A DNA stretch of 64,000 nt from the NCBI GenBank assembly GCA_934466455.1, contig CAKSLF010000005.1:33261-97260 (forward strand), read 5' to 3'. Positions 31,999-59,303 of the stretch are shown here, one piece after another (the first letter of the stretch is position 1; every line of letters begins with the position of its first letter). Origin of the DNA: an uncultured Oscillospiraceae bacterium. Its GTDB lineage: Bacteria; Bacillota; Clostridia; Oscillospirales; Ruminococcaceae. The notes beneath the pieces are model-generated. The model did not search any database and was not told the DNA's origin. It saw only the letters and a program-made list of their open reading frames with translations. The position numbers and the translations under genes are program-made.

Positions 31999-32678
31999 AA
32001 GGACATAAAAAGATGAAGGTTGCCATAGACGGACCCGCCGGAGCGGGCAAAAGCGCAGTTGCAAAAGCTGTTGCAAAGAAACTCGGATTTATCTATGTGG
32101 ATACGGGCGCACTGTACCGTGGAATAGGACTTTATATGCTGCGGAAAGGGGTCGATCCCGGCGACCCGGAAGCGGTGCTTCCCCTGCTTAGCGGGGTAAA
32201 GGAGGAGCTTTGCCATATCGACGGCGAGCAGCGGGTGCTGCTGAACGGCGAGGACATAACCGGTCTTATCCGAACGGAGGAGGTTTCTGCGGCGGCTTCC
32301 GCCGTTTCGGCAATTCCGGAGGTAAGGGCGTTTCTTTATCATACCCAGCGTGATGTTGCCGAAAAAAACAGCGTGGTTATGGACGGCAGGGACATAGGCA
32401 CGGCGATTTTGCCGGACGCAGAGGTTAAAATCTTTATGACAGCCACCCCCGAGGAAAGGGCGCACAGAAGAGTTCTTCAGCTTGCGGAAAAGGAAATCGC
32501 AGCCGATTTTTCCGCCGTGCTTGCGGAAATTAACGAGCGGGATAAAAACGATTCCACAAGGACAGCCGCACCTCTCATACAGGCGGAGGACGCCGTGCTT
32601 ATTGACAATACAAAGATGACCTTTGAGGAAACCGTAAAAGCTGCGGAAAAACTTATTTTGGAGGCACAATGCAAATAA
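31995..32678 (+). CDS. cmk: (d)CMP kinase
   Basis: VAIDGPAGAGKS P-loop and VDTGALYR motif. The start may be the internal ATG at 32013. Confidence 0.9.
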   Translation: MKGHKKMKVAIDGPAGAGKSAVAKAVAKKLGFIYVDTGALYRGIGLYMLRKGVDPGDPEAVLPLLSGVKEELCHIDGEQRVLLNGEDITGLIRTEEVSAAASAVSAIPEVRAFLYHTQRDVAEKNSVVMDGRDIGTAILPDAEVKIFMTATPEERAHRRVLQLAEKEIAADFSAVLAEINERDKNDSTRTAAPLIQAEDAVLIDNTKMTFEETVKAAEKLILEAQCK

Positions 32679-34654
32679 AGGTCGCAAAATCCGCCGGATT
32701 TTGCTTTGGCGTAAAAAGAGCCGTTGGTATTGCGGAAAGCTATGCCGAACGGGGAAAGCCGGCGGTCACACTTGGTGAAATTATACATAATTCTGCGGTG
32801 GTTGAATCCTTGCGCAGCCGGGGAGTTTTTCCGGTGGAAAGCATCGACCAATGCCCGCCCGGCGCAACGGTGATAATCCGTTCCCATGGGGTACCCCTCT
32901 CCGTTATCGAAAAACTTGAAGAACGGGGCATTCCTTACGAAGATGCAACTTGTCCTTTCGTAGCGAGGATACATAAAATCGTAGCCGAAAGAACGGCTGC
33001 GGGAGATGTCGTTATTGTGGTCGGAAACCCGGACCATGCGGAGGTAAAAGGCATTGTCGGGCACGCAAAGGGCAGCGTTTTTGCGGTGAGAAATTTGAGC
33101 GAACTGGAAAAATTGGTCGAAAAAGACAAAACCCTTTGTGCAAAATGCCATACATTGGTTTCTCAAACCACGCTTTTAAGGGCAGAGTGGGAAAAATGTG
33201 AGAAATTTGCGAAAAAGGTATATACAAATTTATTGATTTTTGATACAATATGTTATGATGCTTATACTAAACAAAGGGAGGCAGAGGCACTTTCCGAAGA
33301 ATGTGACAAAATGGTCATAATCGGAGGAAAGAACAGCTCAAATACCGCAAGGCTTTTTGAGACCTGCGCCGCCGGTTGCCCGGCAGTTTTGATTGAGTAT
33401 CCATCGGAGCTAAAGCCGGAATATTGGAAACATTGCGAGGTAATTGGCATCACTGCCGGTGCGTCTACCCCAGCCGGCATAATTAAGGAGGTACTACAAA
33501 CCATGAGTGAAAACAGAGTAGAAGAAAACAACTTTGAGGAAATGCTGGAGCAGTCCTTCAGAGACGAAGAATCCAAGTATGTCAGAAACGGCGATAAGGT
33601 CGAAGCAACCGTTATGGTAGTTAAAGATACCGAGATCGTTGTAAGCGTAGGCAGCAAGCATACCGGATTTGTTTCTGCGGAAGAACTCTCCGACGACCCC
33701 AATGTAAAGCCTGCTGATATCGTCAAAGTAGGCGATGTCATTACCCTTAAAGTAATTAAGGTAAATGACGCCGAAGGCACCATGATTCTTTCTAAGAAGA
33801 AGGTCGATGCCGAAAAGAATTTCCAGCGTGTCGAGGATGCTGCCGGAACTGACGAAATCTTTGAAGGAATTGTTACCGAGGCAGTCAAGGGCGGCGTTAT
33901 TGCCGTTACCGACGGTGTACCTGTTTTCATCCCCGCTTCTCAAGCTACCGCCTCCAGAAACGAGCCCCTCGAAGGACTTCTTAAAAAGAATGTCAGATTC
34001 AAAATTCTCGAGGTTAATCCCCAGCGCAAGCGTGCAATCGGCTCTATCCGCAGCGTGCTTGCAGAAGAGAGAAAAGCAAAACAGGCTGCCTTCTGGGATT
34101 CCATCGAAGTCGGTCAGACCTATACCGGCAAGGTAAAATCCCTCACTTCCTACGGTGCATTTGTTGACCTCGGCGGCGTGGACGGAATGGTTCATGTATC
34201 CGAGCTCTCTTGGCTCCGTGTCGCACATCCTTCCGACATCGTTAAGGTCGGCGATACTCTCGAAGTATTCGTAAAGGATGTTGACAAAGAAAATAAGAAA
34301 ATCAGCCTTGGCTATAAAAAAGAAGAGGACAACCCTTGGGAAATTCTTAAGAGAGATTATCCCGTCGGCTCCACCGCAAAGGTTAAAATCGTCAGCATGA
34401 CCGCATTCGGTGCATTTGCCAACATCATCCCCGGCATCGACGGTCTTATCCACATTTCCCAGATCTCTCACGAGAGAATCGCAAAGCCCCAGGATGTTCT
34501 TTCCATAGGTCAGGAAGTTGAAGTCAAGATTACCGACATCGACTTTGACAAGCATCGTGTAAGCTTCTCCATGAAAGCTCTTGAAGAGCCGCCCGTAAAA
34601 GAAGAAGCTTCCGAAGAAGAAGCACCCGCAGAGGAAGCTCCCGTTGAAGAATAA
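32669..34654 (+). CDS. ispH: bifunctional 4-hydroxy-3-methylbut-2-enyl diphosphate reductase (IspH) / ribosomal protein S1 fusion
   Basis: 661 aa. The N-terminal ~280 aa carry IspH motifs (SAGFCFGVKRAV, conserved Cys), followed by four S1 repeats (GxV ... GxVHxSE). This fusion is common in Clostridia. Confidence 0.9.
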   Translation: MQIKVAKSAGFCFGVKRAVGIAESYAERGKPAVTLGEIIHNSAVVESLRSRGVFPVESIDQCPPGATVIIRSHGVPLSVIEKLEERGIPYEDATCPFVARIHKIVAERTAAGDVVIVVGNPDHAEVKGIVGHAKGSVFAVRNLSELEKLVEKDKTLCAKCHTLVSQTTLLRAEWEKCEKFAKKVYTNLLIFDTICYDAYTKQREAEALSEECDKMVIIGGKNSSNTARLFETCAAGCPAVLIEYPSELKPEYWKHCEVIGITAGASTPAGIIKEVLQTMSENRVEENNFEEMLEQSFRDEESKYVRNGDKVEATVMVVKDTEIVVSVGSKHTGFVSAEELSDDPNVKPADIVKVGDVITLKVIKVNDAEGTMILSKKKVDAEKNFQRVEDAAGTDEIFEGIVTEAVKGGVIAVTDGVPVFIPASQATASRNEPLEGLLKKNVRFKILEVNPQRKRAIGSIRSVLAEERKAKQAAFWDSIEVGQTYTGKVKSLTSYGAFVDLGGVDGMVHVSELSWLRVAHPSDIVKVGDTLEVFVKDVDKENKKISLGYKKEEDNPWEILKRDYPVGSTAKVKIVSMTAFGAFANIIPGIDGLIHISQISHERIAKPQDVLSIGQEVEVKITDIDFDKHRVSFSMKALEEPPVKEEASEEEAPAEEAPVEE

Positions 34655-34679
34655 TTTTTATACATAGATGAGTATAAGC

Positions 34680-34712
34680 AAAAAAGCACCCCCAAAAGGG
34701 TGCTTTTTTTGT
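34680..34712. terminator. bidirectional terminator AAAAGCACCCCCAAAAGGGTGCTTTTTTT
   Basis: Perfect stem flanked by A and T runs between convergent ispH/rpsA and the XRE gene. Confidence 0.75.
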
Positions 34713-34721
34713 TTATGGCTG

Positions 34722-34955
34722 TTATGCAAAAATATCATCGTAATCGGCATTCAAAATTTCTTTTATGAGTATAATTTCGTCCGGGTAAAGGTGACGCTGA
34801 CCAACCTCTATTTTTGCAACGGCACTTCTTGTAATGTCGCAGCCCCGCACCTGAAGTTGTGCAGCGAGTTCTTCCTGCGTAATTTTGGCTTTTTCACGAA
34901 GACGGCGGACATTGCGCCCAACCCGTCTTTCTACTTCCTGATTCATATAACGCAC
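34722..34955 (-). CDS. XRE family helix-turn-helix transcriptional regulator (77 aa, Cro/CI-like)
   Basis: VRRLREKAKITQEELAAQLQVRGCDITRSAVAKIEVGQRHL is a canonical HTH_3 motif. Transcribed divergently from a two-gene cassette. Confidence 0.85.
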   Translation of the reverse strand: MRYMNQEVERRVGRNVRRLREKAKITQEELAAQLQVRGCDITRSAVAKIEVGQRHLYPDEIILIKEILNADYDDIFA

Positions 34956-34985
34956 TCATTTTGCACTTATTTGAGAACAAATCTC

Positions 34986-35040
34986 TTGACATTATTATAG
35001 GATAATGTTAGTATTATTTTGCACCTATATAGGTGCAAAA
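34986..35040 (+). promoter_or_regulatory. promoter TTGACA-N17-TAGTAT followed immediately by the perfect 24-bp palindrome TTTTGCACCTATATAGGTGCAAAA (35017-35040), a candidate XRE operator. A half-site copy TTTTGCAC lies at 34959-34966
   Basis: Read directly. The palindrome sits at the predicted +1 of the cassette promoter and within the divergent XRE upstream region. Confidence 0.6.
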
Positions 35041-35061
35041 TAATACTTTTTGGAGGTTAGG

Positions 35062-35517
35062 ATGCTTAAATTAAATGGCAAGATGGGAACAGTCAGCCAG
35101 CCCATCACATTTGACGGGGGAATTCTAATATCCGCAAAAGAGATTGCGGATATTCTTCGTAAATGTGCTGACGAGAACAGAACGGAGGTAGAAATTTCTG
35201 ACGATACAATTCACGACGGAGGTCTTTTCACCGGCAAGGACTATCCCTGCATTGTACTTAGACACCCAAATCCTCCGCAGGAGTATTTTTATCAGGTGTG
35301 GGTGATAAATGGGAATACGATAAATTTTTATTATTTTGGACGGAGCAAGGCTAATTATAAAGTTAATACCTACAACGAAAAGAAACAAGGAGGGATTTTT
35401 GACCAAATAGCTGCTTCCGTTATGGGAAGTGCCGAAATGGAGCTTCAGGTTGAACAGGAATGGCATAGGAAAGTGTTTGGGCTTTTTGATGCCGCAGTAG
35501 AGAAAGCAAGTTTTTAA
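35062..35517 (+). CDS. hypothetical protein (151 aa), no recognisable domain
   Basis: GGAGGT RBS 6 nt before the ATG. About 42% GC over the first 140 nt, against >50% in the flanking core genes. Confidence 0.6.
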   Translation: MLKLNGKMGTVSQPITFDGGILISAKEIADILRKCADENRTEVEISDDTIHDGGLFTGKDYPCIVLRHPNPPQEYFYQVWVINGNTINFYYFGRSKANYKVNTYNEKKQGGIFDQIAASVMGSAEMELQVEQEWHRKVFGLFDAAVEKASF

Positions 35518-35536
35518 TAGACTGGAGTGATTTCAG

Positions 35537-36004
35537 ATGAGCGATTACTATTGCAAATGCAAAAGCTGTGAGTACATAGACCCCTCGGAGAGAAGCGGGT
35601 ACAAATGGTACTGCACAAGCTACGGTTCGTACGAAGACCCGGACAAAATAAGAGAATGCCGCCGCTATAAGCAAAGCGGTTCTTCCGGCGGCTGTTATTT
35701 TACCTCGGCATGTGTGGAGGCAAAGGGCTTGCCCGATGATTGCCATGAGCTTACTGCGCTTCGGAAATTCCGTGATGAATATGTAGTAAAATGCAGTCAC
35801 GGCGAGGAAGACATCGCACATTATTATGCGGCTGCACCCAAGGTTGTCGAGAGAATTAACAAAAAAGAAAACGCAAAAGCCATTTGGGAAGAAGTATATA
35901 ACTCCATGGTTTTGCCCTGCGTAAAGCTTATTGACGAAAAACGCCTTGACGAGGCGTATACGCTTTATAAAGAAAAAAGCATGGAGCTTGAAACAGCGTA
36001 TTGA
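35537..36004 (+). CDS. hypothetical Cys-rich protein (155 aa) with an N-terminal CxCxxC ... C zinc-ribbon-like cluster
   Basis: YYCKCKSCEY ... WYCTSY ... CRRY ... GGCYFTSAC. Starts 20 nt after the upstream gene, so likely co-transcribed. Confidence 0.6.
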   Translation: MSDYYCKCKSCEYIDPSERSGYKWYCTSYGSYEDPDKIRECRRYKQSGSSGGCYFTSACVEAKGLPDDCHELTALRKFRDEYVVKCSHGEEDIAHYYAAAPKVVERINKKENAKAIWEEVYNSMVLPCVKLIDEKRLDEAYTLYKEKSMELETAY

Positions 36005-36005
36005 T

Positions 36006-36032
36006 AAATGAGCACCGAAAGGTGCTCATTTA
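36006..36032 (+). terminator. terminator hairpin AAATGAGCACCGAAAGGTGCTCATTTATTTT (GAGCAC-family arms)
   Basis: Perfect stem plus T-run after the cassette. Confidence 0.7.
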
Positions 36033-36218
36033 TTTTCGAAAAAAATAATTTTGCCTATTGACTTTAGCGTAGTAATGTAGTAATATATTACCACATTAAA
36101 TCAAACGGAGGGCAAAATGCTGAAGATACGGCAAAGCTCCTCCTCCGTCGGGCGACATCGCAATGCCGGTTAGAAAAAGACAACGCAAAACGATGATAAA
36201 AAACGGAGGAAATTAAAA

Positions 36219-37001
36219 ATGAAAAAAACATTTACAATAATAATATCAATAATTTTGGTTTTGAGCATGGCTGCGTGCTCAAAATCGGAAGGAAAAAGCG
36301 ACCTCGATTATGTAATGGAAAAAGGTGTGCTCGTGGTTGGGGTAACAGAATTTGAACCCATGGATTATCTGGACAAAAACGGTGAATGGGTCGGTTTTGA
36401 TGCGGACCTTGCGGCGGCGTTTGCCGAAAGCCTCGGAATAAAAGCTGAATTTGTAAAAATCGAATGGGCTAACAAAAGCATGGAGCTTTCCGGAAAGACC
36501 GTTGACTGCATATGGAACGGAATGACCTTAAACGACGAGGTAAAAGCGACAATGGAGTGCTCAAACGCCTATTGCGGAAATGCTCAGATCGTGATTTTGC
36601 CGGCGGAAAAGGCAGAGCAATACAAAACCGCCGAGGATATGAAGGAGCTTGTTTTTGCGGTGGAAAACGGTTCCGCCGGGCAAAAGGCGGCGGAGGAAGC
36701 AGGCTTTGAGTTTACGCCGGTGCTCTCTCAGTCGGATGCGCTTATGGAGGTCGCCTCCGGAACAAGCGACGCCGCAATCATAGATTCCCTTATGGCTGCG
36801 GCGATGGTTGGAGAGGGAACCGGGTATCCAAGCCTTACATATACAATATCCCTTACAACCGAGGAATACGGAGTCGGTTTCCGAAAGGGAAGCGGTCTTG
36901 CGGAAAAGCTGAACGATTTTTTCAAAAAAGCGTATGAGGACGGAAGCCTTTTGAGCATGGCAAAAAAATACGGAATGCAGGCTGCGATTATCGAACAATA
37001 A
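36219..37001 (+). CDS. amino acid ABC transporter substrate-binding lipoprotein
   Basis: Lipobox SMAACS. SBP_bac_3-type family fold (GFDADLAAAFAESLG ... ). Confidence 0.85.
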   Translation: MKKTFTIIISIILVLSMAACSKSEGKSDLDYVMEKGVLVVGVTEFEPMDYLDKNGEWVGFDADLAAAFAESLGIKAEFVKIEWANKSMELSGKTVDCIWNGMTLNDEVKATMECSNAYCGNAQIVILPAEKAEQYKTAEDMKELVFAVENGSAGQKAAEEAGFEFTPVLSQSDALMEVASGTSDAAIIDSLMAAAMVGEGTGYPSLTYTISLTTEEYGVGFRKGSGLAEKLNDFFKKAYEDGSLLSMAKKYGMQAAIIEQ

Positions 37002-37066
37002 TTTTAAGCACAACGGGCACGGCGAAACAGAGCCGTGCTCAAAATTGCTTTTTTGGGGAGAATATA

Positions 37067-37834
37067 ATGACAAATTTTGCGGAACAGTTCCCGGTGGTAT
37101 TCGGCGTATTGAATGAGGGGTTTATAAAAACCCTTGCGCTTTTTGCGGTAACCCTTATCGGTGCGTTGCCTCTTGGGCTTTTGGTATATTTCGGAGAGGC
37201 TAATTCTTGGGCACCTTTTGCTTCGTTGGCAAAAAAAATCTTTGTAAAAGGCAGCAAAAACCGCTTTGCGGCATGGCTTGCGGGGTTTTGCCCAATCGCC
37301 GCCGCAGTAAAATTCATAATATGGGTGGTTAGGGGAACGCCGCTTATGCTCCAACTTCTTGTAATATATTATTTTCCCGGGCTTGTTTGGGATAACCCGA
37401 TTTGGGGCAGCGGTGCCGAGGGGCGTTTTCTTGCTTCCGCCGCCGCATTTGTATTCAACTATGCCTGCTATTTTGCGGAAATTTACCGCGGTGGGATACA
37501 AAGCGTGCCAAAGGGACAAACGGAGGCGGGGCAGGTGCTCGGAATGACAAAAAGTCAGATTTTTTTCAAAATCACCCTTTTGCAGACGGTAAAGCACATT
37601 CTTCCGCCAATTTCCAACGAAATAATCACTCTTGTTAAGGACACCTCGCTCTCCCGTGTTGTGGCTTTGCAGGAGATAATATGGATGGGCGAGGCGTTTC
37701 TCAAGGGCTCAAGAGGAATTGCCGGAGCCATATGGCCGCTTTTCTTTACGGGGATATATTACCTTGCGTTTTCCGGTGTGCTCACAGCAATTCTTAACCG
37801 GGCGGAACGCCGTCTTGACTTTTTCAGAGCATAA
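37067..37834 (+). CDS. amino acid ABC transporter permease
   Basis: 255 aa with multiple TM helices and an EAA-like loop (FFKITLLQTVKHILPPISNE). Confidence 0.8.
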   Translation: MTNFAEQFPVVFGVLNEGFIKTLALFAVTLIGALPLGLLVYFGEANSWAPFASLAKKIFVKGSKNRFAAWLAGFCPIAAAVKFIIWVVRGTPLMLQLLVIYYFPGLVWDNPIWGSGAEGRFLASAAAFVFNYACYFAEIYRGGIQSVPKGQTEAGQVLGMTKSQIFFKITLLQTVKHILPPISNEIITLVKDTSLSRVVALQEIIWMGEAFLKGSRGIAGAIWPLFFTGIYYLAFSGVLTAILNRAERRLDFFRA

Positions 37835-37846
37835 AGGAGATAAAAA

Positions 37847-38617
37847 ATGAGCGTGCTTGAAATAAAAAATCTTCGGAAAAGCTTTGACGGGCAGGAGGTT
37901 CTCAAAGGCATTGACATTACTCTTGAAAAAGGCGATGTTCTTGCAATTATCGGACCCTCAGGCAACGGAAAAACAACTCTTCTGCGGTGCATAAATTTCC
38001 TTGAAACGCCGGATGGCGGAAGCATCAGCGTAAACGGAGAAAAAATTTTTGACGGAGAGGGCACAGCCGGAACGGAAGCGGAAATTCGCAAAAAAAGACT
38101 GCATTTTGGAATGGTATTTCAAAATTTTAATCTTTTTCCTCAGTATACTGCGCTCGAAAATGTTGCTCTTTCAAAAGAGCTTTTAGAAAGAGAAAGGCAG
38201 GGGCGCAGAGCCGACCGCCGAAAGATAAGAGCTGCCGCCGAGGCGGAGGCAAGGGAGCTTCTTGAAAGAGTGGGGCTTTCGGACAAGGCGGGGTTTTATC
38301 CGCACCAGCTTTCCGGCGGTCAGCAGCAGCGGGTTGCCATTGCAAGGGCACTTGCCCTTCGACCGGATGTGCTTTGCTTTGACGAACCGACCTCTGCTCT
38401 TGACCCGGAGCTTACCGGCGAGGTTTTGCGGGTGATAAAGTCACTTGAGGATGCAAAAACAACAATGATAATCGTGACCCACGAGATGTCTTTTGCACGG
38501 GAAGCAGCCACGAGGGTTATGTTTATGGAGGACGGCGGCGTGCTTGAGGAGGGAACGCCGAAGGAGATTTTTGAAAATCCCAAGAACCGCCGTGTTGCAG
38601 AATTTATAAATAGATAA
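37847..38617 (+). CDS. amino acid ABC transporter ATP-binding protein
   Basis: GPSGNGKTT Walker A, LSGGQQQRVAIARAL signature, LCFDEPTSALD Walker B. Confidence 0.9.
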   Translation: MSVLEIKNLRKSFDGQEVLKGIDITLEKGDVLAIIGPSGNGKTTLLRCINFLETPDGGSISVNGEKIFDGEGTAGTEAEIRKKRLHFGMVFQNFNLFPQYTALENVALSKELLERERQGRRADRRKIRAAAEAEARELLERVGLSDKAGFYPHQLSGGQQQRVAIARALALRPDVLCFDEPTSALDPELTGEVLRVIKSLEDAKTTMIIVTHEMSFAREAATRVMFMEDGGVLEEGTPKEIFENPKNRRVAEFINR

Positions 38618-38660
38618 AGAGGCGTATATGCGGCTTTGCGCATATACGCCTCTTGTTAAA

Positions 38661-39170
38661 ACTCGTTTTCGTGCTCAAGAAAAAGCCTGCGGTAGGCAAG
38701 TACGCCGGAAAGCTCCGTCCATTTGCGCCGTGCGGGGGGGATGGAATCCAAATCGTAGATTTTTTCGGCGGCGGAACAAGCAAAAAAAGGTAGGTGTGCG
38801 CCTTGCCGTACACCTACTTTTAATATCAAAACTCGTTTTCGTGCTCAAGAAAAAGCCTGCGGTAGGCAAGTACGCCGGAAAGCTCCGTCCATTTGCGCCG
38901 TGCGGGGGGGATGGAATCCAAATCGTAGATTTTTTCGGCGGCGGAACAAGCAAAAAAAGGTAGGTGTGCGCCTTGCCGTACACCTACTTTTAATATCAAA
39001 ACTCGTTTTCGTGCTCAAGAAAAAGCCTGCGGTAGGCAAGTACGCCGGAAAGCTCCGTCCACTTGCGCCGTGCGGGCGGGATGGAATCCAAATCGTAGAT
39101 TTTTGCGCCGGGCAGTGCAAGTAAAAACGGCGAATGGGTGGAGATGATAAGCTGACAACGGAAAAAGCGC
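38661..39170. repeat. tandem direct repeat, 3 units of 170 bp (38661-38830, 38831-39000, 39001-39170). The third unit forms the true 3' end of the downstream ATPase gene
   Basis: The string actcgttttcgtgctcaagaaaaagcctgcggtaggcaag occurs at 38661, 38831 and 39001. Units 1 and 2 are near-identical. Confidence 0.9.
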
Positions 39171-39838
39171 ACAGATTCCTCAAGAAACTCGGCAAGCTTT
39201 TGCTGATTTTCCGGCGAAAGGCTGTTTTCCGGCTCGTCAAGCAGATAAAGCGCATTTTCACGCACAGCATTTGTGAAAAAGGCAAGCGCGCTTTCGCCGT
39301 TGGAATTTTCCTTTATATTGCCGCCGAGGGTTTTGCGCACAAATTGAGAAACGGTGTTGCGGCGAACGCTGTTTTGCAGCTTTAGGTGCTCATAATCCTC
39401 CATGGTTTTGAAGGAATATTTTTTAAGCTTTTCTCTACGGTATTCCTCAAAAAGCTCCTCTCTGCGGCGGTCGATTCCGTCGTTCATACACCGAAGGTCA
39501 AGCAGAAAATCAAAAACATCGTCGCTTGTAACAATGCGGCTTTCCTTTGGGATCCTTCTCCCGTCGGATGAACAAAGCTCCACATAGTCATCGAAGAACG
39601 GGCTTTTGTTGAACGGAACGCCCCGGCGGATACAAAGCTTTTCCGCAATGACATTAAGTATGGTGCTTTTACCGCTTCCGTTCCCGCCGTAGAATATTGT
39701 TATCGGCTCAAACTCAAAACAGGGAAGATTTCTGTATGTAAACACGCCAAAAGGATAATAGTCGTTATAGCAGGTCATTTTTCCGCCGTAGCACTCCTCT
39801 TGTCCGGGCGAGGGAAAGAAAAATTTTTCGAGAAACAT
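38996..39838 (-). CDS. solo ABC-type/AAA_21-like ATPase (about 280 aa)
   Basis: GGNGSGKST Walker A, SNGESALAFF signature-like, LYLLDEPENSL Walker B, STHSP H-loop. No partner gene nearby. ATG start 8 nt after AAAGAGG. Confidence 0.75.
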   Translation of the reverse strand: MFLEKFFFPSPGQEECYGGKMTCYNDYYPFGVFTYRNLPCFEFEPITIFYGGNGSGKSTILNVIAEKLCIRRGVPFNKSPFFDDYVELCSSDGRRIPKESRIVTSDDVFDFLLDLRCMNDGIDRRREELFEEYRREKLKKYSFKTMEDYEHLKLQNSVRRNTVSQFVRKTLGGNIKENSNGESALAFFTNAVRENALYLLDEPENSLSPENQQKLAEFLEESVRFFRCQLIISTHSPFLLALPGAKIYDLDSIPPARRKWTELSGVLAYRRLFLEHENEF

Positions 39839-40220
39839 ATAAAACACCTCTTTATATATTTTTTTATTTTAACATTGTAATCTGTACTTTACAATAAAAA
39901 ATATTATATACCAACGCATAGAAATGCTTATGTTAGCCGTAAAAATGAAAGAAATCCGTCAAGCTGCACAAAAATACGAAGTAATTTTTATGCACAATGA
40001 CGGTATAAATTTGCTTTCCGAAAGTTTTTTAATAGTGCCGAAATTTCGGCATATTGCACTATGCGGGGGCTTTGAGTTTATGCATTATGACGAAAAACAG
40101 AAAAAGAGCCGGGTTAGGACTTTATATTTATTTTACAAACAGCAGTCTTTGAGCATAAAAATTATCTAAAATCAACAAAAAATATTACAAGTTTTTTACA
40201 AAGCGGTAAAAGCCAAAAAA

Positions 40221-40274
40221 TTGATTTTACAAAGAAAAAATACTATAATTATAGCAATGAAGCAAAAGCTTCAT
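40221..40274 (+). promoter_or_regulatory. promoter TTGATT-N17-TATAAT (40221-40249) followed by the palindrome ATGAAGCAAAAGCTTCAT (40257-40274) upstream of the Fe-type ABC transporter
   Basis: Read directly. Four TTTTACAA(A/T) direct repeats lie in the 150 nt upstream. Confidence 0.5.
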
Positions 40275-40317
40275 ATTTTACAATGATTCTATTTTCAAGG
40301 ATCAAGGAGGAAACATT

Positions 40318-41376
40318 ATGAAAAAGCTTCTCGCTGTAATGCTTGCGGCAATTATGGTTCTCGGTCTTGCCGCCTGCGGCCCTACCCAGACCGGTATTGA
40401 CACCAAGGATCTCGAAATCCACGAAGAAGTAACCGGCAAAGTTGTTATCTATACCTCTATGTATCAGGATATCATCGAGGCTCTTCAGGTAACTCTTGAC
40501 ACCGTATTCCCGAACTGCGACATCGAGTTCTTCCAGGGCGGCACCGGCACTATCCAGTCCAAAGTCACCAGCGAACTTGAAGGCGGAAAACTCGGCTGCG
40601 ACATCCTTATGGTTGCAGAGCCTTCCTACGCTCTTGAGCTTAAAGAGATGGGCATTCTCCATGCCTATAAATCTCCCGAAGCAGCAAGCCTTGCTTTTGA
40701 CTATGACCCCGACGGCACTTGGTACCCTGTTCGTATCTCCAACATGGTTCTTGCATACAACCCCGACAAATATGCAAAAGAAGATGTTGCACAGTCCCTC
40801 AAGGATTTTGCCTATGATGAAAACCTCAAAGGCATGATCTCCATGTCCAACCCCCTTACCTCCGGCACCGCTCTTGCATCCATCGTTGCTCTCAGCAGCA
40901 CCTATGGCTATGAGTATTTCGATGCGCTTTCCGCACAGGAAGTTATGATCGAATCCGGCTCCGTTGCTCTTACCAAGCTTGAAACCGGCGAGTGCAAAGA
41001 GATTATGATTCTTGAAGAATCCGTACTTAAGAAGAGAGAAGAAGAGCAGTCCAAGATAGAGTGCATCTATCCTACCGACGGCACCATCGTATGCCCTTCT
41101 CCTATCATGACTATTAATGACGATATGAGCGCAAACGCAAACTCCGCGGCTTGCGAAGTTATCACCGACTGGTTCCTTTCCGAAGTTGGTCAGTCCGCTA
41201 TCGTAAAGGGCTGGATGCATTCCGTTCGTTCCGATTATCCGGAGCCTCCGTATGATGCAATCCCCACCAAGGACATCATTGCCAACACCATGAGCATTGA
41301 CTGGGAGTTCTGCTACAAGAACCGTTCCGAAGTTCGTACCGCTTTTGAAGAAAGAGTTAAAATGCCCGAAGGCTGA
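40318..41376 (+). CDS. ABC transporter substrate-binding lipoprotein (Fe3+/FbpA-AfuA-like)
   Basis: Lipobox LGLAACG. 352 aa periplasmic-binding fold. Followed by a fused double permease and a TOBE-domain ATPase. Confidence 0.7.
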   Translation: MKKLLAVMLAAIMVLGLAACGPTQTGIDTKDLEIHEEVTGKVVIYTSMYQDIIEALQVTLDTVFPNCDIEFFQGGTGTIQSKVTSELEGGKLGCDILMVAEPSYALELKEMGILHAYKSPEAASLAFDYDPDGTWYPVRISNMVLAYNPDKYAKEDVAQSLKDFAYDENLKGMISMSNPLTSGTALASIVALSSTYGYEYFDALSAQEVMIESGSVALTKLETGECKEIMILEESVLKKREEEQSKIECIYPTDGTIVCPSPIMTINDDMSANANSAACEVITDWFLSEVGQSAIVKGWMHSVRSDYPEPPYDAIPTKDIIANTMSIDWEFCYKNRSEVRTAFEERVKMPEG

Positions 41377-58838: not shown

Positions 58839-59303
58839 TTATTTTTTCAGCAGGTTTTTTCCGATTACAACAATTCCGGCGAGTATTTCGCTAACCGAAA
58901 TCCCCATAAGAATACCGGAAATAAAGTCCTTGACATCCGTGCCTCCGAGGGTGGCGGATATAGCACTGCAGGCAATTCCAAAAACAATAAGAAGAACTCC
59001 CTTATGCAAAACATTCTGCCGTTCAAGCTCTTGAGTGCGGCGCAAAAGGTCAAGTATGTGCTCGTCGTCATAACCCCGAAGGCTGTCCTCCGCTGCGTCC
59101 TCGCCGTCCATAAGCTCCGCAAGGGTTACGGAGAGAGCGGCGCAAAGCTGCTGAACTACGCTGTAATCCGGCATACATTTTCCGTTTTCCCATTTTGAAA
59201 TTGTTTTGTTGGATACGCCGATTTGCTCCGCAAGCTGTTCCTGAGTAAGATTTTTTTCCTTGCGCTTGTGCGCAATATAGTTTCCGATAGCGGTTTGGTT
59301 CAT
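58839..59303 (-). CDS. XRE family HTH regulator with a C-terminal transmembrane segment
   Basis: N-terminal HTH_3 (LTQEQLAEQIGVSNKTISKWENG) and a C-terminal hydrophobic stretch VLLIVFGIACSAISATLGG ... ILAGIVVIG. Confidence 0.75.
   Translation of the reverse strand: MNQTAIGNYIAHKRKEKNLTQEQLAEQIGVSNKTISKWENGKCMPDYSVVQQLCAALSVTLAELMDGEDAAEDSLRGYDDEHILDLLRRTQELERQNVLHKGVLLIVFGIACSAISATLGGTDVKDFISGILMGISVSEILAGIVVIGKNLLKK

Follow-up and report, generated by a model that had tools for sequence, protein, structure and literature searches.

An accessory gene cassette with a divergent XRE regulator and a CFI-box protein in uncultured gut Clostridia, and its possible role in inter-genomic conflict

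Several described systems share parts with the locus analyzed here, a cassette of three genes within a stretch of 64,000 nucleotides (nt), hereafter called the window, from an uncultured Oscillospiraceae bacterium (GenBank assembly GCA_934466455.1, contig CAKSLF010000005.1, positions 33,261 to 97,260 of the forward strand). One is the CFI-box-CTERM family of NCBIfam (NF041770), in which the CFI-box domain belongs to multidomain proteins of 300-900 amino acids (aa); the literature that we searched yielded no paper on this domain. Another is formed by the eCIS effectors, which carry DUF4157 N-terminally and, typically, a toxin domain C-terminally (Geller et al. 2021, PMC8213781). A third comprises the effector-associated adaptor domains, for which a pattern of adjacent gene copies has been described (Kaur et al. 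2020, PMC7159879). On the regulatory side, comparison is invited by the Cro/CI-type repressors and the controller (C) proteins of restriction-modification systems, and by type II toxin-antitoxin (TA) systems such as HigBA, HipBA and MqsRA.

The cassette of the window is a real accessory unit of about 1.4 kb, in which a small repressor gene is combined with a conserved palindrome and with two genes for small conserved proteins, hereafter abbreviated as A and B, the latter ending in a CFI-box; its host is an Oscillospiraceae-like member of the uncultured gut Clostridia. We propose, with a probability of roughly 0.45, that it is a horizontally exchanged cassette gated by its XRE protein and acting in inter-genomic conflict via the CFI-box. 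Architecture and accessory status, taken alone, are very likely to be correct, and the conflict role by itself is tentative, the odds leaning against it.

The XRE gene and the two-gene A-B operon point away from each other (table 1; all coordinates are positions in the window, with open reading frames, or ORFs, taken from the ORF listing and from direct reading). An initial annotation of this DNA had placed the three genes at coordinates that agree with the ORF listing, and had described the regulator as a Cro/CI-like XRE protein of 77 aa. The match to the helix-turn-helix (HTH) family HTH_3 bears out the type, and the length holds for a GTG start, from which the ORF reaches 34955; gene callers on identical and related contigs take the ATG at 34946, which gives 74 aa. 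The gap between A and B measures 19 nt, one less than had been stated. The whole unit is bracketed by two strong terminators, both of which were overlooked in the initial annotation.

The cassette lies in a variable slot, bounded by ispH-rpsA on one side and by the ABC transporter operon on the other. The arrangement is the same in two further assemblies of this organism (L107 and L108 among the comparison loci), and the closest relative found (L111), with an IspH-RpsA protein 92% identical to that of the window, has an empty site: its gene order is cmk, ispH-rpsA and, 243 nt further on, the substrate-binding-protein gene, so that homology with the window ends at 34655 and resumes at 36033. 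A less closely related genome (L112, 85% identical) has a TetR gene and a zinc alcohol dehydrogenase gene in the slot. Two loci of the same species as the window (L109 and L110), 98% identical to it downstream, part from it upstream of 36006, one base past the stop codon of B. In these two the slot carries a third, other sequence. Homologous cassettes are found elsewhere among unrelated genes, namely DUF4430 and MatE (L101), TP_methylase and acetyltransferase (L105) and IF-2B and DUF1667 (L106). L101 and L106 thus have the same XRE gene and intergenic region at unrelated sites of the chromosome; the site in L105 is unrelated as well, and the XRE gene there is a different one. Integrase and transposase genes were seen neither inside nor beside the insert. 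These comparisons support the view that the cassette was gained or lost recently and that it is a self-contained accessory unit; of the horizontally acquired, XRE-controlled module postulated in the initial annotation, the accessory nature is what the empty site of L111, the different insert of L112 and the break in L109 and L110 sustain.

Composition adds less to this picture than had been thought. The GC content of the window is 47.9%, its genes averaging 48.8 ± 2.7% overall and 52 ± 4.6% at third codon positions (GC3). Gene A, with 41.9% GC and 41.3% GC3, lies about 2.5 standard deviations under the mean, as the earlier claim of a lower GC content than the surroundings would have it; gene B has 45.8% GC and a normal GC3 of 50.3%, and the flanking genes, said to exceed 50%, have 47.7% (ispH-rpsA) and 47.4% (substrate-binding-protein gene). 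The compositional argument is valid for gene A only. Purifying selection acts on each of the three genes, as seen from the nonsynonymous (pN) and synonymous (pS) divergence between homologues: pN is 0.059 and pS 0.73 for B between the window and L101, about 0.11 and 0.69-0.84 for XRE between the window and both L101 and L106, and 0.21 and 0.73 for A between the window and L106. Since pN is far under pS in all three, the genes are real.

The XRE protein scores 35.9 bits against HTH_3 (PF01381, gathering cutoff 23), its top matches among PHROGs are transcriptional repressor families and it matches a generic 'control protein' model of PADLOC (E 1.3e-6). A second ORF of the XRE HTH type (58839-59303, minus strand, 154 aa, iterated XRE profile E 1e-16) occurs in the window, unlinked to the cassette.

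Orthologues 81% identical to the cassette regulator are present in L101 and L106, and the region between XRE and A is 84% identical across the window and these two loci, including -35 and -10 elements, palindrome and upstream half-site. The synonymous sites of the genes beside it are saturated (pS 0.69-0.84), their conservation being far lower than that of the intergenic region. Kept in both loci is the A-B promoter, which the initial annotation had correctly recognized as TTGACA-N17-TAGTAT together with the GGAGGT ribosome-binding site of gene A (35052-35057). Also kept is a perfect palindrome of 38 bp that had escaped notice; its 24-nt core has no second match in the window at up to three mismatches, none being expected by chance. 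Both loci likewise keep the extra half-site ATTTTGCAC, a 9-mer of which three of the four copies in the window belong to this intergenic region. The putative -10 element of the XRE promoter, which the consensus scan did not list, would be served by a weak -35 (TGCAAA) that falls within the palindrome.

The variation found in L105 is informative in this respect: here a homologue of A is accompanied by an unrelated XRE protein (31% identity), and the equivalent intergenic region contains a different perfect palindrome of 20+20 nt. XRE and palindrome therefore swap together between L105 and the pair L101 and L106, as expected of a repressor and its cognate operator. An RNA structure was considered for the palindrome and rejected; as the hairpin that it would form in the 5' untranslated region is unremarkable (z -1.4), the palindrome is better read as a DNA operator. 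We infer from these sequence relationships that the XRE protein binds the palindrome, its candidate operator. A dimer would then cover the -10/+1 region of the strong A-B promoter together with the weak -35 of the XRE gene, with a further half-site in the XRE leader; the protein would silence A and B, and control its own gene, until some signal relieves repression.

With its length of about 75 aa, its HTH-only structure, the palindrome at a divergent promoter pair and probable autoregulation, the XRE protein resembles Cro/CI-type and C proteins; unlike these, it has neither restriction-modification genes nor a phage lysogeny module adjoining, and the cargo consists of two unrelated small proteins. 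The likeness to type II TA systems lies in a small XRE gene beside small accessory genes and in a weak resemblance to antitoxins of the HipB and MqsA types, at scores far under the cutoffs of these families. In a TA-like or abortive infection system, as suggested in the initial annotation, B (or A) would be a toxin and XRE both repressor and antitoxin, or else A would be an immunity protein for B. The genes are indeed small, tightly linked, accessory and mobile, and the CFI-box sits where DUF4157 proteins usually have their toxin. However, the score of XRE against the HipB-type model TIGR03070 (24.8 bits, E 1.5e-5) is far under the NCBIfam cutoff of 71.65, XRE is divergent from the cargo operon, and neither A nor B has a recognized toxin or defence family or toxin fold. 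The reading thus fails two defining features, since there is no co-transcription and no recognizable toxin, and we regard it as quite improbable.

The initial annotation held that neither cargo protein could be assigned to a family. This stands for A and has to be revised for B, residues 53-124 of which match positions 1-68 of the 69 in the profile of NF041770 with 48.4 bits (E 6e-13, cutoff 40); the profile is matched as well by all 27 relatives of B that were aligned. B therefore joins, as a new member, a family that has been named but not studied; the XRE protein is ordinary. In agreement with the curated family the domain is C-terminal and its score lies over the curated cutoff, whereas B differs from the other members in being minimal, a Cys-rich part of 47 aa plus the CFI-box, and in having the motif C-Y-F-T-S-A-C in place of C-F-I. 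The domain begins at C53 (CYFTSAC, with CFLTSAC or CFITTA in relatives), in keeping with the Cys-aromatic-aliphatic 'CFI' start that defines the family, and the helical bundle extends to the last residue: the AlphaFold2 (AF2) model places helices at 54-63, 70-85, 89-108, 113-133 and 137-154, with confidence (pLDDT) of about 88-95 from residue 70 and 76-78 for residues 51-70. The Cys pattern of the N-terminal part, C6-x-C8-xx-C11-x14-C26-x14-C41, had been read correctly in the initial annotation; this mini-domain is probably metal-binding.

Homologues of B are numerous. The database search returned 141, mostly of 150-170 aa, from Oscillospiraceae, Ruminococcaceae and other metagenome-assembled genomes of Clostridia, and 270 stretches among one-genome-per-species contigs encode a relative. 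Invariant in the family are C59, D67, C69, L72, R76, R79, Y96, Y97, A100, P101 and Y144, with C53 nearly so. B has no match in Pfam, hence no N-terminal PF13699 domain, and searches of sequence profiles against the PDB returned nothing meaningful for either A or B.

The other proteins that end in a CFI-box are diverse. Besides the PF13699 proteins (eCIS_core, DUF4157) encoded in L071, L076 and L078, they include an LGFP-repeat protein (L079), a zinc-ribbon protein (L082), low-complexity proteins of 240-430 aa in conserved phage modules (L081-L100) and, in a deposited podovirus genome, a protein of 994 aa encoded between portal and capsid genes. On IncF plasmids of E. coli (L133, CP056279.1 46200-52075) two dynamin-family genes are followed by the gene for an 829-aa Sel1-repeat protein with terminal CFI-box; on a Lysinibacillus plasmid (L134, NZ_CP106864.1) the gene for an 860-aa CFI-box protein precedes those for a VWA protein and a PP2C phosphatase. 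Several plasmid records of RefSeq/PGAP use CFI-box-CTERM as product name. Two or three CFI-box genes stand side by side in L001, L070, L074, L085 and L101, and L076 has two that are 4 kb apart; these tandem genes, present at six loci or more, fit the adjacent-copy pattern of effector-associated adaptor domains. The 64-kb window has a single CFI-box ORF.

These contexts, in our analysis, point to conflict-type systems and would suit an effector domain as well as a homotypic coupling domain like those of Kaur et al. (PMC7159879). The CFI-box shares its C-terminal position with the toxin domains of DUF4157 effectors, from which B departs in lacking DUF4157 and in having no eCIS genes nearby. With effector-associated domains it shares small size, an all-helical structure, a terminal position on diverse multidomain proteins, adjacent copies at other loci and the VWA-PP2C neighbourhood; it differs from them in matching no Pfam family, those of effector-associated domains included, in occurring once in the window and in having Cys, Asp, Arg and Tyr positions that are nearly invariant, a conservation suggestive of catalysis or of a bound ligand or metal.

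The presence of the domain in phage proteins, together with the phage repressor families that lead the PHROG matches of the XRE protein and a divergent promoter/operator layout resembling a lysogeny switch, could also be explained if the cassette were a prophage remnant or moron, with a leftover CI/Cro-type switch and two phage accessory genes. Phage hallmark genes and attachment repeats are absent from the 1.36-kb insert and from its flanks (cmk, ispH-rpsA and the ABC transporter operon), as is an integrase, and the viral collections searched (IMG/VR and GenBank phage records) yielded no homologue of A. The viral CFI-box proteins, moreover, are large proteins of virion modules that have only the C-terminal domain in common with B, at 32-49% identity, and none has a divergent XRE neighbour. 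This origin, which the initial annotation had listed among its possibilities, we consider very unlikely. The viral CFI-box module was also scanned against PHROGs, which yielded no useful information.

The conserved residues of B lend themselves to yet another explanation, in which the cassette would be an accessory regulon responsive to stress, redox state or metals: Cys-rich B would bind a metal or an Fe-S cluster, A would serve as its chaperone or partner and XRE would sense a physiological cue. It would account for the five conserved N-terminal Cys, for C53, C59 and C69 and for the invariant D67, R76, R79, Y96 and Y97 of the CFI-box, and it agrees with the lack of any toxin or defence signature and with neighbours that serve, for the most part, ordinary metabolism and transport, MatE transporters recurring in 6 of 148. 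The patchy, strain-variable distribution with the empty site in L111, and the free swapping of partner genes, speak against it, and a purely cytoplasmic redox role is hard to square with CFI-boxes that terminate eCIS-core proteins and proteins of phage virion modules. We judge it unlikely; if it were true, the cassette would be a well-delimited, strain-variable islet of ordinary stress physiology in an uncultured gut Clostridia species.

Gene A has no match in Pfam, NCBIfam, PHROGs or PADLOC, and among 40 members of its family none matches any Pfam family consistently; a hint of DUF7784 (E 0.11) was reproduced in none of the 40 and was discarded. Seven close homologues were retrieved by word-index search. 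An exhaustive profile search among 1.84 billion representative clusters found 154 at E<=1e-3, mostly of about 150 aa, some members having N-terminal extensions that are Sel1/TPR-like or transmembrane. Conserved motifs are SGG, HPNPPQxY, F-x-x-x-G-x-S-K and E-x-x-W, and the fold is predicted by modelling to be alpha/beta, of TBP/KA1-like type. The A family, the stand-alone version of the five-Cys domain described below and the XRE-A-B architecture are in none of the family libraries searched.

The linkage of the three genes was followed across the loci of B homologues. At 23 of 80 genome loci, and at none of 17 viral loci, the B homologue has a small divergent XRE gene no more than 300 nt away. 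An ORF with the A domain is found within 6 kb of B, usually adjacent, at 9 of the 80, a proximity far above chance because the A family is so rare. At 44 of 62 loci B is followed within 120 nt by a partner gene on the same strand, and such partners are varied: A-family members, Sel1-like proteins, proteins whose sequence begins with MGLFD... and repeat proteins of a beta-flower-like kind. When metagenomes were scanned from the side of A (with the A5 alignment, the A4 alignment being too divergent), the complete XRE-A-B arrangement appeared in L125 and L126 and A-B in L128 and L129, the other A loci being without B.

In three independent lineages (L105, L106 and L131) A is followed by an ORF of 47-50 aa that corresponds to the Cys-rich domain of B only, with the consensus M[AS]D.YCKCK.CKY.DP...W.C..Y..Y.D...V.EC..[YF]K. 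These ORFs retain all five Cys, stop at the domain boundary and have no CFI-box remnant downstream; they look like an unannotated mini-protein family. In L101, the XRE gene and its intergenic region precede a different first gene, encoding a 217-aa protein with a CFI-box of its own, and then a B gene with 88% identity. The conserved couplings are those of XRE with the palindrome-bearing intergenic region, of A with the five-Cys domain and of the five-Cys domain with the CFI-box, and the window has all of them. The same data bear on the TA-like reading discussed above, against which it counts that most B homologues lack an A partner and that the five-Cys-only versions are clean ORFs ending at a domain boundary, not decayed toxins.

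Returning to the exchanged, conflict-related cassette that we favour, its payload would be a protein pair, formed by A with its predicted TBP/KA1-like fold and by B as a fusion of five-Cys mini-domain and CFI-box. A would pair physically with the five-Cys domain, which is its likely real partner because this domain also stands alone as a mini-protein after A. The CFI-box would be an add-on C-terminal module providing the output, either as effector or as homotypic coupling domain, and the whole would constitute an inducible module for conflict between genomes, responding to phage, toxin or stress. A bolder version would make the CFI-box an output domain (effector or Death-like homotypic coupler) common to phage virion-internal proteins, eCIS cargo, dynamin/Sel1 operons, VWA/PP2C operons and a family of XRE-gated mini-cassettes of gut Clostridia, with A and the five-Cys domain as a new sensor/neutraliser pair and the cassette as a new inducible defence or toxin-like system; we hold this to be unlikely.

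Several results weigh against our proposal. Most B homologues are without A and many are without a detectable XRE neighbour, which implies that the three-gene unit is one variant of a looser family. AF2 confidence is poor for the Cys-rich domain of B and moderate for A. The invariant C59, D67, C69, R76, R79, Y96, Y97 and P101 of the CFI-box would fit a ligand- or metal-binding housekeeping role as well. In PADLOC-DB 2.0, B obtains only insignificant matches (E 1.6e-3 and 3.7e-3) to unrelated models. The scan of neighbours, comprising 148 proteins from up to 62 genome loci and being qualitative since it has no background rate, revealed no enrichment of phage hallmark genes, and PADLOC flags CBASS or retron genes at about two or three of these loci.

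The neighbours belong to 118 Pfam families, with MatE 6 times, Sel1 and radical SAM 3 times each and the rest as singletons or pairs from metabolism and transport; such qualitative counts give no support to a location in defence islands or prophages. The neighbourhood comparison envisaged in the initial annotation has confirmed that XRE, intergenic region and cargo recur at unrelated sites, and has found defence genes only at the two or three loci mentioned. Genes resembling radical SAM/SPASM maturases lie a few genes from B homologues in L001 (3711-4817) and L032 (2999-5860), the latter also with an A-family gene upstream. On this basis B might be a Cys-rich precursor or partner in radical-SAM peptide maturation, similar to that of ribosomally synthesized and post-translationally modified peptides, and the cassette a fragment of such a pathway, the maturase genes being within four genes of B in both cases. 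We find this extremely improbable: these are only 2 of about 62 loci, too few for a general explanation, the cassette of the window has no maturase nearby, and B contains a folded and highly conserved helical domain of 100 aa, unlike a leader or core peptide.

No surprising mechanism has been demonstrated for the cassette. If the conflict role is true, the cassette offers first access to a domain that has so far been no more than a name in a database, presenting the CFI-box in its simplest and genetically tractable form: a protein of 155 aa, one conserved palindrome and a unit of 1.4 kb. It is convenient for asking what the CFI-box does, and could define a partner family, A, together with a five-Cys mini-protein absent from databases.

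Table 1. Features of the cassette and related ORFs. Positions refer to the window unless a comparison locus is named; a point in the strand column marks features given without strand.
Feature	Position	Strand	Remarks
XRE/Cro-like HTH repressor gene	34722-34946	-	74 aa from ATG; HTH_3 match
Gene A	35062-35517	+	151 aa, uncharacterized alpha/beta protein; motifs HPNPPQxY, G-x-S-K, E-x-x-W
Gene B	35537-36004	+	155 aa; Cys-rich N-terminus and CFI-box
Gene B, five-Cys mini-domain	35537-35677	+	Residues 1-47; CxCxxC-x14-C-x14-C
Gene B, CFI-box domain plus stop codon	35693-36004	+	Residues 53-155; HMM match 53-124; five-helix bundle
A-B operon promoter, sigma-70-type	34986-35014	+	TTGACA 34986-34991, 17-nt spacer, TAGTAT 35009-35014, extended TG
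Perfect 19+19-nt palindrome, candidate XRE operator	35010-35047	.	Halves AGTATTATTTTGCACCTAT and ATAGGTGCAAAATAATACT; overlaps -10/+1 of A-B promoter
Extra operator half-site in XRE 5' leader (candidate)	34958-34966	+	ATTTTGCAC; direct-repeat copy of palindrome arm
Inferred XRE promoter -10	34994-34999	-	Perfect TATAAT; minus-strand reading
Hairpin terminator, bidirectional, between convergent rpsA and XRE genes	34673-34717	.	Terminator scan; -22.5 kcal/mol, z -4.5
Intrinsic terminator of A-B operon	36003-36034	+	Hairpin -20.9 kcal/mol, z -8.0, then U-rich tract
Accessory insert, extent against empty site of closest relative	34669-36032	.	L111 alignment
Stand-alone five-Cys ORFs after A	L105:8466-8609, L106:5833-5985, L131:1648-1797		

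Some features beside the cassette deserve mention. Upstream of it, ispH (LytB) and rpsA (four S1 domains) form one fused ORF of 661 aa (32669-34654), ordinary for this lineage, relatives being named 'bifunctional 4-hydroxy-3-methylbut-2-enyl diphosphate reductase/30S ribosomal protein S1' by NCBI. Downstream, the solo ATPase pointed out in the initial annotation is present as an AAA_21/AAA_15 protein (38996-39847, minus strand), and nothing connects it to the cassette: its gene is separated from the cassette by the conserved ABC transporter operon, and none of the fetched loci of A or B homologues showed it as a neighbour. The 3' end of this gene is reiterated by a 170-bp tandem repeat (38658-39111, 2.7 copies, 98% identical) that yields repeated ORF fragments ending ...LFLEHENEF; L107, otherwise 99.9% identical, has one copy fewer, so that copy number varies across assemblies or strains. 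Between the ATPase gene and the next substrate-binding-protein gene, a segment of very low GC content (39850-40250, 30-35%) with an ORF of 81 aa may be a small variable region.

A search of 34000-40400 against Rfam matched no RNA family. Within this range, an ORF of 18 codons, MLKIRQSSSSVGRHRNAG (36117-36173), with a strong ribosome-binding site, lies between a promoter (36058-36091) that holds the palindrome GTAATATATTAC (36080-36091) and the substrate-binding-protein gene of the amino-acid ABC transporter. L111 has MLGTKQNSSSIGRHQRKACK at the same site, the core SSS[VI]GRH being common to both, and this ORF, itself without Rfam match, may be a leader peptide or attenuator.

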